DNA of 64,000 nucleotides, taken from contig CAVWVQ010000003.1 in NCBI GenBank assembly GCA_963758525.1, positions 2,688,001 to 2,752,000 of the forward strand, written 5' to 3'. The DNA is from an uncultured Phycisphaerales bacterium (GTDB lineage: Bacteria; Planctomycetota; Phycisphaerae; Tepidisphaerales; Tepidisphaeraceae). The notes under the pieces were generated by a model. The model saw only the letters and a list, made by a program, of their open reading frames with translations. It was not told where the DNA came from and searched no databases. The position numbers were made by a program, and so were the translations under genes. Numbering within the stretch: the stretch's first letter is position 1; each line of letters starts with the position of its first letter. Positions 16,295-22,326 of the stretch are shown here, piece after piece.

Positions 16295-16819
16295 ATGAAT
16301 GAATCAATCGAGGATGTTGCCAGGAAATGGGCTGCGGCACAGCCGCTGGTTGCTTCGTTTATTTCCTTGATTGTATCGGACTTCCATAACGCACAAGACG
16401 TGCTGCAGGAGGTCGCGGCGGCGGTGTTGTCTCACGACCCATCCCGCAGCGTCCCCGAGTCGTTTAACGCGTGGGTCATTGGGATCGCCCGTCATAAGGC
16501 GTTGGATTTTCATCGCCGTCAGACCCGCGACAAACTGGTCTTTGACTCAGAGGCGCTGTCGATCCTCGCCGAGGTGCATCAGGAGGTTCGCCAGGACCAG
16601 GGGCCGCGCCGCGAGGCCATGGAGCATTGTCTCAAGCGGCTGGCTTCCAAGGCGCGCCGGCTCATCGAACTGCGCTACCAGGATGATATGAAGCCGGGCG
16701 CGATCGCCGGGGCGATGGGGAGTAACGTCAGCGCGGTGAAGGTCGCGCTCCACCGCGTGCGGGCGGCGCTGCGGGTCTGTATTGAGGCGCGGCTCAGTTC
16801 TGGAATCGAGCTGACATGA
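16295..16819 (+). CDS. ECF sigma-70 factor
   Basis: AQDVLQEV, FNAWVIGIARHKALD (region 2); LIELRY..IA..V.VALHRVR (region 4). Confidence 0.93.
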   Translation: MNESIEDVARKWAAAQPLVASFISLIVSDFHNAQDVLQEVAAAVLSHDPSRSVPESFNAWVIGIARHKALDFHRRQTRDKLVFDSEALSILAEVHQEVRQDQGPRREAMEHCLKRLASKARRLIELRYQDDMKPGAIAGAMGSNVSAVKVALHRVRAALRVCIEARLSSGIELT

Positions 16820-18411
16820 AGGACCCGATGGCACTTCTCGACGAACACTTCGACGGCATCCTCGATGAAGCCGGGGCGGCAGAGTTGTCGGCATGGGTGA
16901 AGCAGAACCGTCGCAACGCCCGCCTTCTGGTCGATGCCGCGCGGTTGCACCAGGATCTTCGCGAACTGTTCCTTGGCCGCCGGCTTTTGGAAGAGGCGGC
17001 ATCATCAGGCACTTCGCTCCATGACGCGATGATCCTCCCCGCTATATCGCTTCCAGCCAATGATGAAGCGGAGGCGCAGACCCCTCCGGTGGCAACGGTA
17101 CCGACTCGCATTGAACCATCGACGTCGCGTTTGCGTCATCGGTACTGGAAAATCGCCGCTGCGATCGCGATCCCGATTCTGGCCGGCATCGTACTCTGGT
17201 CAGTCCTTCGCCCCGCCAAACCCGGCGGAGCTCTGGTCGCCAGCGCCTCGGCCGTTTGGGACAATGCAGTTCAGCCACCACACGACGGGCAGCCCCTTCC
17301 TGCTGGACCGCTGCAACTGGCCAGCGGGCTGGCCGAGATACGCCTTAATAACGGCGTTTCACTCGTCGTTGAAGGCCCGGCGCATTTCCAGCTTCAATCT
17401 CAGAACAGCGTCGCGCTTGAACTGGGCAAAATTACGGTAAGCGTACCTGCCACTGCCCACGGATTTACCATTCAGACTCCCTCCTCGCGCACCGTCGATC
17501 TGGGGACAGAGTTCGGCGTCATCGTGGACGACGCCGGAAATACCGAAACGCATGTCATCCGCGGCACGGTTGAAGTAACGCCCACCGCCGGTGGCGCAGC
17601 GCTGCTCTTCTCGGCAGACCACGCGGCACGCGTCGATGTCGGCGCCACTTCGGCGCAAACGATTGAGTGCCACGCGGGGAATTTTGTGCAGGACGTCCCG
17701 GCAATCGACCTTGTGGACGTCATCGCCGGCGGAGACGGGACGCAGGGACGGTCAAATAGCGGGATCGATATGGCCACTGGCAAAGCCTTGCCGGTGAAAG
17801 TCCCGGCAGGCATGAACCCCGGGCCCGAACCAACGATTCGCGGAGACGGAAAGTTCCACCCCTGCCCCTCCCTGCCATTGGGTGTCTTCATCCCGCATGG
17901 TGGGCCGACGCCTGACACAGTCGACGCTGCCGGCCACCAGTATATTTTCCCGCCCACGAGCAACCTTGCGTATCAAAACATTTGGCCCGGATCCGCCCAG
18001 CATCTGCTGGGTGGCGATTCGCCTACCACTGGTATGACCAAAGAGAATGGCTACCCGGCGCCGGGTCACCGATTACTCGAACTTCATGCCAATAAAGGAA
18101 TCACGTTCGATCTCAATGCACTGCGCACCGCTCATCCCGACCGGCCATTCTCGCATCTCGTCGCCCGTTGCGTGAATATGAATGCATATGCCGAACCAGT
18201 GATCGGTGCAATAGTCTCCGATCGATCGGAGCTTTGGATATTTGTGGATGGCGATCTCCGTGCACACAAGCTGATTCATCGCATGGACCCGCCATTCGAT
18301 GTTGACGTTCCCATCGAACCCGCTTCGCATTTTTTGACATTGGTGGTGAGCGACGGAGGAGATGGCTTCGACTGGGACGTGGTGTCGTTGGGTGATCCAA
18401 GGTTAAAATGA
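16816..18411 (+). CDS. FecR-domain anti-sigma factor with C-terminal NPCBM/NEW2-like domain
   Basis: TM helix; GFTIQTPSSRTVDLGTEFGV; HANKGITFDL; FLTLVVSDGGDG..D...GDPRL. Confidence 0.88.
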   Translation: MKDPMALLDEHFDGILDEAGAAELSAWVKQNRRNARLLVDAARLHQDLRELFLGRRLLEEAASSGTSLHDAMILPAISLPANDEAEAQTPPVATVPTRIEPSTSRLRHRYWKIAAAIAIPILAGIVLWSVLRPAKPGGALVASASAVWDNAVQPPHDGQPLPAGPLQLASGLAEIRLNNGVSLVVEGPAHFQLQSQNSVALELGKITVSVPATAHGFTIQTPSSRTVDLGTEFGVIVDDAGNTETHVIRGTVEVTPTAGGAALLFSADHAARVDVGATSAQTIECHAGNFVQDVPAIDLVDVIAGGDGTQGRSNSGIDMATGKALPVKVPAGMNPGPEPTIRGDGKFHPCPSLPLGVFIPHGGPTPDTVDAAGHQYIFPPTSNLAYQNIWPGSAQHLLGGDSPTTGMTKENGYPAPGHRLLELHANKGITFDLNALRTAHPDRPFSHLVARCVNMNAYAEPVIGAIVSDRSELWIFVDGDLRAHKLIHRMDPPFDVDVPIEPASHFLTLVVSDGGDGFDWDVVSLGDPRLK

Positions 18412-18424
18412 ATTAGGTGCATAG

Positions 18425-21181
18425 ATGCGGAAACGAGCACGCGATTTTACTCTTGTTGAGCCGCAGCGCTGCCTCAGGCGAAGATCCAAATCAGCTTTCA
18501 TCTCTGAAGGGGCTTCTTGTCAACGGCGAGACGGCTTGATTGCTAAGTTCCGTTCATTGCTCTCTCCGATCAGCTTCGCGCACTCCCCCTGCGCCCTTGG
18601 CGGGGAGGCTAACGAGGCGGGGGTTTGGGGGCAGAGCCCCCAAGTCTTTGTCGTTCTCGGCGGAACCGTGGCTGCCATCCGGCACCGCGCGGGCGGCGCG
18701 ATGCGGCGGTTGAATTCATCTCTATGCGGTCATCGGACGGACGGGTCGCAATGCCAGGCCGTGTGTTCCGAGCCGAATAAAACCTTGTTCGCGTCAACCG
18801 GGCCGAATTCACACTGTCGCAGTCACCAGCAGAACCCGAATCCGACGCCAGTGGCGTCCGATTCGAACCAATGCCTGCCGGGCCGAATGAAGCCGAGTCG
18901 CGGTCTCCAGATTGACGAGACATCGTCTTGCATGGCTGCAAGAACTATTGATGTCATAAGCGTTCCGCCGAACCGCTGGTCATGCCAGGATCATCTCCTC
19001 TTCTTGTTTGACAGGTTGTTGCTTAGCAGATTGTTGCTTGAGCCGGGCCTTGTTGGCCGCCCGCTCGTGTCCGGTGGGCTCCTGGCCCTGGTAGGCCGTC
19101 CCGTCGCGGACCATGGCAAAGAGGACACGCAGCAGGCGTCTTCCCATCGCGACGTTCGCCTTGGGCTTGACCATGTGTCCGATCAGCCGCTGGCGGATCG
19201 CCTCCTGCTTCGCGTCGGAGCGGCAGAGGGTGACCGCGGCCTTGCACAACGCCCAGCGCAGCGTGGCGCTGCCCGCCTTGGTGATGTGACCCGACTGGGT
19301 CCGGCCGGCCGACTCCTGGTTGTCGGGAGTCAATCCCGCCCAGAACTCGAGGGTGTCGGCGTTGGGAAAACGGGAGAACTCGCCGATCTCCGCGGCGATG
19401 ATGCACGCCCAGATCTCGTCGATTCCCGGCACGCTCTTGAGAATCGCAATCAGGGAGGCGAATCGCCGGTCGCGGTTGGCAAAAATGATTTTCCTGCGCA
19501 GGCATTCCCGCTGTCGCTCGATCAGGCAGACCAGGTCCAGGAAGTTGCCGAAGGCTTCGCGCTGCACGTCCTTGAGCAGATCGCCATTGGCCAGCAGCCA
19601 TTTCTGGGCGCCGGCGCCGTCCAGCTTGGGACCGCGAATGTTGGCGGCCAGGAGCATCGACCGCATGGCGTGCTTGGCGCGGGTGAGGGTGCGGGACAAA
19701 TGCCGCCAGTGCCGGCCGAGCTTGCGGAGCTGCATCACTGCTTCGGGGGCGATCCATCCCAGCGGGCACTCCCCGCGGGAGAGGCGCTGGGCGATGTCGG
19801 CCGCGTCCTTGCGATCGGTCTTGCGCCGCTTACCCCGGAGGTTGGACAACTGCGTCGCGTCGGCGATCTCGATCTTGTCCACGCAGGAGCGGAAGCGGTC
19901 GATGAACCACTCGACAAAGCCGACGGCTTCCACTGCCAGGCGGCTGGGACGCGGCAACGCCAGCATCCATTTTTCGATGCGGTCAACGCACTTGGTGTCA
20001 CAGGTCAGCGCGGCGATCTGCGTCCCCGAAGCATCGACAGCACACAGCGAGACGGTACACTTATGCAAATCCACGCCGACGAACGCGGCGTACGAAACAG
20101 GCACATCAGACATAACAAACTCCGTGTTAGGGACCAAGGGAACTTAGAACACTCCCGGAAGCGTAACGGCTTCCGCAGGCCCCTTCACGGTTTTACGCTG
20201 GTGGAACTCCTCGTTGTTATTGGAATCATCGCTGTCTTGATTGCATTATTGCTTCCGTCCCTCCAAAAAGCGCGACAGCAGGCCAGGTACGTCAGATGGC
20301 AGGCTTTCAGCCGTGATTTGTCGATGGATCCCAGCGTCATCGTCCATTACGACATGCAGAATGATGCGGGAACCTCCTTCCTGACGAATATGGCCATGGG
20401 TAATGCCCGAGACCCATCAATGGTCCCGTCCAATCTCGACGCGCAGATTCTCGACTGGTCGCAGAGCCCCTTTCCGCTGCTCTCGGTCAACTATCCCGGG
20501 CAGGTGGCCGCACTATGGTCGAATAGCGGGCGATTCCCGGGAAAGCCGGCCCTGTCGTTCAACCCAACGCTCACACCCAACGCCATGGCCTACATCGGAC
20601 AGCGGAACAATGGAATCGGTCGGATCGCCAACATGCTGCGCAAAACGCAGGCCTACACGCTTTTGTACTGGGTCTATGTGCCCCGTCCGGCTGTTGACAA
20701 CCAGCTCTTTGTGTATTGGGCTGGCAAGGGCAATTCTGCACAGATCGTGGTCACCACGGATATGGCCTGGGGCGGGAACGTCAACGCCTCGCAGGGGAGC
20801 GGTTTTGGCGGTTCCCCTACCATGACCTCATTTTCCACCGGAACAGGAGCGATTCCATTCACCTATGGGCAAGACTCGCGGTGGAATCTGTTTGCCTTCA
20901 CCAGCGATCGCAGATCTGGAGTTGCCAAGCTCTATCAGAACGGCGTGCTGGTCGCCTACCAGCAGTCGGGCAACCAGTTGATCGTCGGCCCTGACGTGGC
21001 GTATCCAACCGGCAGCGATCCTGGCGCATTGGTCTTTGGAAATTGGCCGAACCACGGTGAGAACAATATCGTCTGCGACGAATTTGGACTTTTCGACTCT
21101 GATCTTTCTCCCAACGACCCATTGATACTGGGCACCATTTCGCCACGCTTTTTCCCGATGTACACTGTGGGCGTGAATTAA
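18425..21181 (+). CDS. Prepilin-type N-terminal cleavage/methylation protein with LamG-like C-terminus, interrupted in frame by an IS110 element
   Basis: [31 protein letters not shown] from 20192. Removing 18499-20193 gives ...[13 protein letters not shown]-terminal [22 protein letters not shown]. Confidence 0.9.
18640..18979 (-). ncRNA. Putative bridge/seek RNA of the IS110 element (ends approximate)
   Basis: Contains matches to the donor junction (18715-18723, 18664-18670) and to the target (18808-18816, 18780-18784), in target-loop then donor-loop order on the minus strand. Confidence 0.75.
18980..20113 (-). CDS. IS110-family DEDD recombinase/transposase
   Basis: [20 protein letters not shown] (DEDD); [20 protein letters not shown] (catalytic Ser), [22 protein letters not shown] before ATG at 20113. 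Confidence 0.96.
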
Positions 21182-21211
21182 CCTGACCGGCCCCCAAACC
21201 GATGCGTGTCC

Positions 21212-21691
21212 ATGGCGCTTAGAGAATTCTTCAGTCAAAACCCCAAGGCGGTCGCCACAGGGACCGTCCTGGTGCTGGCAGCTTGCCTTGTTGTGATCTT
21301 TTCCGAGTTGAACGGCGGCGGAAAACCCAGGTTGCCGATCATGCCTGATCAGGCATTTTACACCACTGACGACGGCGCTACCCTCTTCGCCGATTCCCTC
21401 TCCAAAGTTTCCCCAATCGACCATAATGGGCATCAGGCTGTGCGGGCCCACGTCTACAGCTGCGATGGAGGGCGCCATCGATGGGTGCAGTATCTGGAAA
21501 AGATGACCGAGAAAGAGAAAACAATCGCTGAATCTCCCGAGCAATCCCGCAGCCATTCGTTCGATCCTCTGATCAAAAAGCCGGGGGATTCAAAATGGGT
21601 CCACCAGAGCGATCTCACTGCGCCGGCGATGATGATCCCAAAGTGCCCCGACGGGATGGGCTCAGGCGTGCCGCAACCCGTCGCCCCCTGA
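21212..21691 (+). CDS. Membrane-anchored hypothetical protein downstream of the prepilin gene
   Basis: Single TM helix; AFYTTDDG..AVRAHVYSCDGG..YLEK..KCPDG. Confidence 0.8.
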   Translation: MALREFFSQNPKAVATGTVLVLAACLVVIFSELNGGGKPRLPIMPDQAFYTTDDGATLFADSLSKVSPIDHNGHQAVRAHVYSCDGGRHRWVQYLEKMTEKEKTIAESPEQSRSHSFDPLIKKPGDSKWVHQSDLTAPAMMIPKCPDGMGSGVPQPVAP

Positions 21692-22094
21692 CCCTGAAAG
21701 CCGCTTGCGCGAAAAAGTCAGGCTGTGCCTTTCATCTGCGGGAATGCGAAGTACAGTTGGAAATGCGAAGGGGGTCAGCCCCAGGTCAGCCCAGCTTCCC
21801 GTTTGAAGCCGCACGTTTCGTTTTCTCCGGGCCCTTGCTGTTGTTCTCCTTACTCGGCCGCCACGGATTTCGCGCCGCGGGTGATCTCGAGTTCCAGTTG
21901 CCGCAAGCCCGTCGTGGGGGAGACGCAGCCGGGCGCGGCTGGTTGTTCTCAATTCATCTTCACCTTCGATATTGTCTTGCTTCGGGCTGCAGCGCGGCAT
22001 GCGATTGTACTGCAGGCGCAGGCGGGTCAACATCCTGCGCACAGTCCCCTCAACGATGCTCAAAAACAACCACAGAGAGGGAGGAGCGCACGGA

Positions 22095-22326
22095 GCACAC
22101 ACGCCGCGGAGCGTGCATTGCGCCCGGCGGTGGTGGCCCGGAAGATCAGCGGCGGGAGCCGCAGCAGAAACGGCGCGGAGGCATGGGCGACGCTTTGCTC
22201 GCTGCTCCGCACGGCCGATCAGCAGGGCCAGAATCTGCTCGAGACGATCAAGGCGATGTTAATTGGAGCATGGGCCGCGAAGCGGCCGCCGACCATGCCG
22301 GCGGGGCCGTGACTGCAGCCAGTTAC
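22095..22326 (+). mobile_element. IS66-family remnant: transposase C-terminus and right end
   Basis: AERALRPAVVARKISGGSRSRNGA..SLLRT motif; ends CCAGTTAC (reverse complement GTAACTGG). Confidence 0.8.

Follow-up and report, generated by a model that had tools for sequence, protein, structure and literature searches.

An IS110-family insertion sequence at a prepilin cleavage motif with an antisense strand kept open in the host reading frame

This report concerns a 64,000-nucleotide stretch of DNA (the window) from an uncultured Phycisphaerales bacterium, in which a predicted pilin-like gene is occupied by an insertion sequence (IS) of the IS110 family. The open reading frame (ORF) at 18425-21181 on the + strand spans the inserted element and translates into 918 amino acids (aa) with zero internal stops. 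We propose, with a probability of about 0.6, that read-through supplies the host protein with a 589-residue disposable leader, which the host prepilin peptidase would remove at a Gly-Phe site rebuilt by the element. Comparison of related sequences supports two parts of this proposal very well, namely targeting of the prepilin motif and selected antisense translatability. A broader view, which we hold slightly less firmly, is that such elements represent a third mode of hiding, beside introns and inteins. In this mode, an RNA-guided IS family would be translated backwards as a junk leader of 530-630 residues, and a host protease would remove it at the site that the element both targets and rebuilds. 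Recombinase, guide RNA and open antisense frame would share the same DNA, and in-frame nesting would be possible.

The proposed mechanism involves several steps. Guides in an element-encoded RNA match the Gly/Ala-Phe-Thr-Leu codons of prepilin genes as well as the element ends, and covary with both. As is expected from its family, the element would excise to a circle, form a junction promoter and reinsert under RNA guidance. Selection keeps the antisense strand open and in phase, by synonymous codon choice in the recombinase gene and by net frame-preserving indels in the RNA end, as the statistics given below indicate. The leader peptide is free to drift up to its final 15-25 residues; this basic terminal stretch has few acidic residues and Gly as its last one. 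The fusion would be targeted by the pilin helix and cut on the cytoplasmic side, the leader would be degraded, and translation of downstream coupled genes would be preserved. The element would gain a multi-copy coding target (~60 prepilin motif matches in this genome, G000) at low cost to the host.

The principal features of the occupied gene are as follows.
18425..18499, + strand: 5' part of the host gene, predicted native prepilin leader of 25 codons, with Ala as the -1 residue at the empty site
18500..20194, - strand: IS110-family element with IS1111-type layout, 1695 bp, equal to 565 codons open on the host (+) strand, delimited by alignment of four genomic copies
18980..20113, - strand: predicted IS110-family DEDD recombinase, 377 aa, encoded without TTA, CTA or TCA codons; NF033542 at 185 bits (cut-off 140)
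20120..20191, + strand: putative element-encoded basic, prepilin-like leader end that supplies Gly-1
20192..21181, + strand: predicted mature pilin-like protein FTLVELLVV..., 329 aa, with N-methyl motif and weak LamG-like domain

Four near-identical copies are present in the genome, all in the same orientation and all between the Phe and Thr codons of a G/A-F-T-L-x-E motif. One A is common to both junctions; only that A is certainly shared by target and donor, and the exact crossover is uncertain. Removal of the 1695 bp from the window restores SAF-TLVE exactly. The element end contributes ...RRPLHGF, and the occupied allele therefore has Gly at -1, versus Ala in the empty site. Copies C and D occupy adjacent pilin genes that overlap by ATGA, within an operon encoding T2SSE, T2SSF, PilM and GspH, and lie in uninterrupted ORFs of 720 and 880 aa.

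The initial annotation of the window, made from this copy, claimed that the element length is a multiple of three and that the host frame stays open throughout; ORF translation and the four-copy alignment bear this out. How often this would occur by chance was estimated for each part of the element. The recombinase gene is codon-aligned with the host frame on the opposite strand, and 213 of 2077 windows of 385 codons within long ORFs of G000 (10%) are open in the codon-aligned antisense frame. Among 5000 dinucleotide shuffles, 3.2% were open for the 480-bp non-coding end and 45% for the 81-bp end. The product of the three chances is ~1e-3, before any phase requirement. Therefore, one copy alone is suggestive, and homologues settle the question.

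Relatives were drawn from 27 loci in genome contigs (mostly labelled Planctomycetota), the best 80 of 212 metagenome loci, and genome searches. The 115 loci examined gave 75 distinct elements with both ends (recombinase identity 63-100%, lengths 1581-1899 bp); the 40 others were cut by contig ends, partial or duplicate. The check on homologues set in advance, that they keep a length divisible by three and are depleted of host-frame stops, came out positively: 72 of the 75 complete elements have such a length, despite 43 different lengths, and 68 have a stop-free host frame. When the recombinase stop was reset and three loci with recombinase frames of <300 codons (L105, L117 and L122) were dropped, 70 of the remaining 72 were in phase and 66 were stop-free. 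Clustering at 90% identity left 45 clusters with 34 different lengths, of which 43 were in phase and 40 stop-free.

The non-coding end carries the clearest signal. Its host frame contains no stop in 42 of 45 clusters, versus 3 of 225 for the other frames, and its stops number 16 in the host frame versus 255, 201, 244, 236 and 192 in the other five. The initial annotation had conceded that open antisense frames are common opposite GC-rich coding sequences, which would not explain the non-coding part. Within recombinase genes, the codons that create antisense stops (TTA, CTA and TCA) occur 5 times in 22,937 codons, versus 152 expected from G000 usage, and CTA plus TCA occur 3 times versus 236 expected from the elements' own rate of NNA codons. 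The avoidance persists where the G+C content of third codon positions (GC3) is ~0.5, as in L071, L073 and L076, which have none. By comparison, three relatives retargeted to non-pilin sites (L030, L083 and L084) have 13 such codons where 7 are expected; two of the three, L030 and L083, also lie out of phase. In a quick tree, L083 is the sister of L071 (Shimodaira-Hasegawa-like approximate likelihood-ratio test, SH-aLRT, 98), and the openness signal spans branch lengths of 0.05-0.7. Among 12 IS110 genes taken as a control, all of them unrelated or distant, only 3 lack antisense stops.

A second clade, with 34-37% recombinase identity (L129/L149, L150, L151 and an element nested at L099), also uses GF^TLxE, with open or near-open frames. 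For example, L150 is open from junction to junction, and L129, at 1395 bp, has one stop followed directly by ATG (TGAATG). L139 and L144 were also grouped in the ~34%-identity clade that inserts at GF^TLxE, and the left end GCTATGTAGG is found in L129 and L099. Tandem or nested elements occur at L081, L097, L099 and L112, including a distant type beside the main type. At L081 and L099 the frame is open into the neighboring element as far as the locus reaches, for >247 and >481 codons, respectively.

The statistics indicate that selection acts only on openness, not on the peptide, except at the very end of the element. Across 24 disjoint pairs, the ratio of nonsynonymous to synonymous change (dN/dS) in the host frame is 0.94 for the variable part and 1.02 for the RNA core, and mismatch rates in the non-coding end are equal at all three codon positions. 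Single indels in this end are mostly not multiples of three (15/69 and 16/60 are); only the net length is.

At the very end, the 14-20-residue spacer before PLHG contains 264 Lys or Arg residues across 52 clusters, versus 130+/-10 in base shuffles, and 31 Asp or Glu residues versus 62+/-7; the other two frames give 85 and 129 Lys or Arg. This basic spacer resembles the hydrophilic cytoplasmic leader of prepilins. Gly-1 is present at all occupied pilin sites, though 27 of 69 empty sites had Ala. Of 57 sites that could be assessed, 52 have a host ORF that continues for 100 codons or more past the element.

The second main line of evidence is target choice. The element carries a predicted guide RNA with the following parts.
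18690..18979, - strand: predicted bridge/seek RNA, located downstream of the recombinase gene and folding into two domains that both contain an internal loop, 57 consensus pairs
18718..18723, - strand: putative right donor guide, complement of ATCTCT; ACCTCT in L083 and L115, whose ends start CCTCT
18777..18784, - strand: putative left donor guide GGTTTTAT; GGCTTTTAT in L083, whose end is CGCTTTTA
18811..18816, - strand: putative right target guide, complement of ACACTG, the Thr-Leu codons; ATACCG in L030 and ACTACAA in L083 fit their non-pilin targets
18887..18894, - strand: putative left target guide GGCTTCAT, covering the Gly-Phe codons and the junction; CCTATTAT in L030 fits its target CTATTA

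In the consensus fold of 30 sequences, 32 of the 57 pairs show compensatory changes. The minimum-energy fold of the window RNA alone is no better than shuffles (z 0.0), and support for the structure thus comes from covariation rather than single-sequence folding energy. An Rfam scan of 18300-20300 on both strands placed no family near its gathering score and returned one chance-level hit (E 0.18). Four segments in the loops correspond to the two halves (left and right) of the target and of the donor, as would be expected for an IS110 guide RNA. The assignment is supported because the guides follow changes in targets and ends. Thus, L030 has the natural target CTATTA^TACCG with both target guides changed accordingly, L083 has a right target guide that fits A^CTACAA and donor guides altered along with its element ends, and in L115 one donor base is changed and the matching guide base is changed too. 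Target guides of pilin-targeting elements vary mainly at codon wobble positions (judged by eye and uncounted).

Junctions agree with this targeting. The motif T-L/M/I-x-E is found at 89 of 100 distinct right junctions; of the remaining 11, 5 are cut short, 2 run into another element, 1 has a variant motif and 3 are non-pilin sites. A scan of 401 genomes for the end motif found 9 with a match; among 9 places outside G000, 4 are at pilin motifs and 5 are unrelated. Viral contigs gave 35 pattern matches, none of them a relative. The retargeted L030 has no open frame; it lies within a motif that looks conserved, YNYRVFDRYNREV, and reads in the direction of its host gene, which may resemble Rpn/YhgA-like nucleases.

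The host product has the marks of a prepilin. Gly or Ala at -1, Phe at +1, Glu at +5 and ~21 hydrophobic residues are present, PF07963 and TIGR02532 score above cut-off, and the LamG-like domain scores below its Pfam cut-off. A prepilin peptidase gene (peptidase A24) is present in G000 (PF01478, 68.8 bits, G000:C3:2528924-2529229). AlphaFold, applied to the 918-aa ORF as a single sequence, gave a mean pLDDT of 31.9, with the pilin helix (588-621) as the sole confident part; the C-terminal domain of the host protein is also low, so the model is uninformative on the leader.

The element itself is an IS110 family member with IS1111-type layout; the latter term refers to layout rather than a subgroup phylogeny. 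The recombinase combines a DEDD RuvC-like domain (PF01548, 47.7 bits) with Transposase_20 (PF02371, 74.4 bits), its residues D23, E70, D108, D111 and S276 are invariant among 25 sequences, and the GL-P----S(t)G motif is present in its C-terminal domain. The start codon previously placed at TTG 20137 has been moved: ATG 20113 is most likely, giving 377 aa and a predicted Shine-Dalgarno (SD) pairing of -6.1 kcal/mol. As in IS1111 elements, the non-coding sequence lies mostly downstream of the recombinase gene (480 bp versus 81 bp upstream), and 9-bp subterminal inverted repeats, within the 7-17 bp typical of the group, are present near the ends. The remaining features bear on ends and expression.
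18505..18513, either strand: subterminal inverted repeat TGAAGGGGC at the element's right end, which covaries with its partner across clusters
18518..18523, - strand: -35 hexamer TTGACA of a predicted junction promoter; the circle joint would place it 17 nt from TAAAAC of the other end
20120..20126, - strand: predicted SD sequence of the recombinase, opposite the leader end
~20156..20175, - strand: hairpin, opposite the leader end
20179..20187, - strand: second inverted repeat, partner of the first, opposite the leader end
20063..20191, + strand: in-frame internal ATG with a possible 43-aa leader; read on the opposite strand, this ATG is the CAT codon for the DLHK His of the recombinase

Exact TTGACA and TAAAAC occur in 30 of 45 clusters, and TAAAAC in 44 of 45. 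Among sequencing runs, nine DNA runs with shares of 0.40 or less were listed and no RNA run containing the sequence. Neither a circle end-to-end joint nor an empty-site joint was found in four contig sets of DNA reads. These run and contig results are not evidence either way. Neither the promoter-like match at 20034-20061 nor the terminator-like hairpin at 18619-18641 exceeds chance level.

The internal ATG is central to the most serious alternative, which we consider unlikely. According to this explanation, the open frame is an anti-polarity ramp that holds ribosomes on the mRNA and prevents Rho termination, the pilin is made mainly from a restart near the element end (ATG or GTG at the His codon, with a 43-aa leader), and the fusion is a by-product. 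The initial annotation had proposed that ATG 20063 provides a replacement leader. The codon is in frame and yields exactly the predicted 43-aa peptide, whose last residue is the Gly at 20189-20191. Because it is the reverse complement of an invariant His codon, every homologue has a potential start there (ATG in 24 of 93, GTG in 69 of 93). However, CAT is not enriched at the DLHK His (17 of 61 clusters versus 110 of 406 other His codons), GTG is found in 44 of 61 clusters with a median SD pairing of -3.9, and the SD pairing of ATG 20063 (-4.2) is equaled at 22% of background positions. Restart also predicts tolerated stops before the start. In 54 read-through lineages, there are zero stops in the 30, 50 and 100 codons upstream, where 10.2, 18.7 and 27.1 are expected; this count leaves out lineages with stops or their own start, and three of those left out, from one clade, hold five such stops. 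The lack of stops indicates that the fusion is the selected route in this copy's type.

Other lineages do show the restart design. A sister clade (L022, L067, L068, L155 and L157) has a common stop ~19 codons upstream of the His codon, which always gives ATG. In L003, L039, L129 and the group L071/L073/L076, a stop is followed by a new in-frame ATG that gives leaders of 15-33 aa, and these new ATGs are preceded by SD sequences in all five loci scored. In the L071/L073/L076 group, ~540 open codons end at the new ATG, through either TAA-A-ATG or an ATGA overlap; the leader is 15 aa long and its SD pairing is -4.5 to -6.5. Restart likewise needs the non-coding end in phase. Thus, of the two routes to an intact protein that had been suggested, read-through without polarity is supported by homologues that are in phase and stop-free, whereas the internal ATG does not appear to be a selected feature of this copy; the replacement leader survives as an alternative design elsewhere. 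All designs bring ribosomes across the element to the rebuilt G-F site. We regard this shared result as the strongest argument that what selection favors is production of the host's pilin-like protein.

An improbable alternative is that the element protects itself: ribosomes on the host-driven antisense transcript would block its pairing with, and silencing of, recombinase mRNA or guide RNA, and host rescue would be incidental. In favor of this idea, every insertion lies antisense to a transcribed gene, and openness without peptide conservation fits. However, self-protection needs neither an in-frame pilin fusion, nor a basic terminal peptide, nor independently gained leaders with SD and ATG.

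Less probable still is that only DNA excision, as a phase-variation switch, or intron-like RNA splicing restores the host gene. IS110-family elements do excise to circles (accessible parts of PMC11208160 and PMC11187229), and exact restoration of SAF-TLVE fits. However, neither process requires an open frame or a length divisible by three, which are the strongest signals, and the Rfam scan found no intron family. Excision may occur alongside read-through.

We give slightly less credit again to an antisense frame that encodes a functional protein, such as a transposition regulator, released by cleavage. L073 and L076 keep their ~540-codon open frame although it is not fused to pilin, and this frame has a possible ATG of its own close to the left end; against this, dN/dS is ~1, mismatches in the non-coding end are equal at all codon positions, and residues 1-587 contain no Pfam or NCBIfam family. 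Chance opening by GC-rich codon bias can draw on the open coding windows and distant IS110 genes noted above, but it can almost certainly be dismissed in view of the open non-coding end and the clusters in phase despite different lengths, a pattern that holds at GC3 0.5.

Several observations weigh against the read-through leader that we favor. Known prepilin leaders have 6-26 aa, or ~30 in type IVb pili (T4bP), according to the accessible text of PMC4471445, whereas the read-through leader has 589 aa and the internal-start leader 43 aa; we found no report in the open-access literature of processing of a ~590-aa prepilin leader. Lineages with a stop and restart near the end suggest that the fusion is not selected there. 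The elements are related, and counts are therefore not independent. RNA or promoter constraints acting on the opposite strand could account for part of the terminal Lys/Arg bias. The leader shows no avoidance of hydrophobic stretches relative to synonymous shuffles (z -0.09): among 40 clusters, the highest Kyte-Doolittle 19-mer reaches 1.6 or more in 31 and 2.0 or more in 8, and such stretches could misroute the fusion. In 5 of 57 occupied hosts, including copy B, the ORF stops within 100 codons, versus 2 of 52 IS-free controls; as the insertions may be recent, hosts that are intact carry little weight. The copy-B host gene (G000:C3 3873198-3874211) shifts frame 35 codons past the junction, and T2SSF in the operon of copies C and D is split into two overlapping ORFs (G000:C3 4123745-4124966). 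Both may reflect decay or assembly indels, which are indistinguishable.

The maximum 19-mer of this copy's leader is 1.33. In L025, L080, L099, L103 and others, the first 10-30 codons past the left junction give GF-ISVGA plus a hydrophobic stretch whose 19-mer hydropathy reaches 2.55, reminiscent of a second signal of the prepilin type. This stretch probably derives from the A-rich tract beside the -35 box.

Inteins and IStrons are selfish inserts in conserved coding sites that are removed after transcription or translation, leaving the host product intact. The element described here would act like an intein in effect; however, removal would be by a host protease and the upstream part would be lost, which is possible only because the upstream part is a disposable leader. 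The element does not qualify as either: Pfam and NCBIfam scans of the 918-aa ORF found pilin and LamG-like families only, without a Hint domain, and the Rfam scan found no group I intron. In tRNA and tmRNA islands and in the prophage-like elements of comK and sigK, an element end restores part of the interrupted gene. Unlike these cases, here a whole 1.6-1.9 kb element, with recombinase gene and guide RNA backwards, lies within the host ORF.

Among IS110-family systems, one close likeness is to IS1111-family seekRNA elements (ISEc11, ISPa11 and ISKpn4), which, as described in the accessible part of PMC11187229, share the DEDD recombinase with GL-P----S-G motif, subterminal inverted repeats, a long non-coding region downstream of the gene, a junction promoter (predicted here) and guides that match the target. 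Unlike the IS1111 elements described there, the present element would target prepilin cleavage codons, keep its antisense strand translatable and rebuild the cleavage site; its recombinase, at 377 aa, is also above the typical 330-350 aa (PMC11187229, accessible part). The IS621 and ISCro4 bridge recombinases likewise use a two-loop RNA with target and donor guides (PMC11208160, accessible part), and the recombinase shows distant homology to them (PDB 8WT6 and 9T56, E 7.5e-13 and 4.4e-15). IS621 inserts in repetitive extragenic palindromic (REP) repeats around a CT core, whereas here the target is coding and only one A is surely shared (AC versus AT). Like ISEc21, an IS110 element whose guides spell the catalytic codons of IS3 transposases, the element is predicted to read a conserved coding motif; ISEc21 has its RNA upstream, and the accessible part of PMC11187229 describes no preserved frame or target-protein rescue for it. 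The Piv invertase of Moraxella (named in PMC11187229 and PMC11208160) is also an IS110-related recombinase at type IV pilin genes, but Piv inverts a segment, whereas here we find a multi-copy insertion sequence. According to reviews, the cut in prepilins follows Gly or Ala and takes place on the cytoplasmic side, and the leader remains in the cytoplasm in keeping with the positive-inside rule (PMC4471445 and PMC10191384, accessible parts).

The family shows that purifying selection can preserve nothing but translatability on a transposon's antisense strand, and that it does so opposite both a recombinase gene and a structured guide RNA. Such selection is not described for IS biology in the literature searched. 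Nor are such elements described in the open-access literature; most subscription journals, ISfinder and the supplements of IS110 papers were outside this coverage. The proposal bears on how IS elements persist in conserved coding motifs without gene loss, and on any leader-length limit of prepilin peptidase. Together with retargeted relatives, the ~75 elements also provide a naturally occurring set of bridge RNAs, with guide differences at codon wobble positions. In genome annotation, occupied alleles would be labelled pseudogenes though they may be functional.

Several minor observations concern the element and its surroundings. A GC-rich hairpin motif in the element (window 18592-18644) is common to short pieces of many otherwise unrelated contigs, possibly as a carried repeat. 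Two element-free pilin-like genes (G000:C3 ~4773160 and 687725) have leaders that end RRPLHGF and DNA that resembles the element end; they may be remnants whose leader came from an element. The native host leader includes a second, degenerate motif, DFTLVE (window 18443-18460), 19 residues upstream of the real one, and doubled leaders are also found in other G000 pilin genes (C3 ~4930277, 3070573 and 3890757), which could be duplications or decoy targets. Window 16295-21691 forms a module of an extracytoplasmic function (ECF) sigma factor, a FecR-type anti-sigma factor, the pilin-like/LamG gene and a small membrane protein, with similar genes near copy B. Farther downstream (window ~22000-22312) is the end of a short ORF, LCSLLRTADQQGQNLLETIK..., perhaps a remnant, which may resemble the C-terminus of IS66 transposases.

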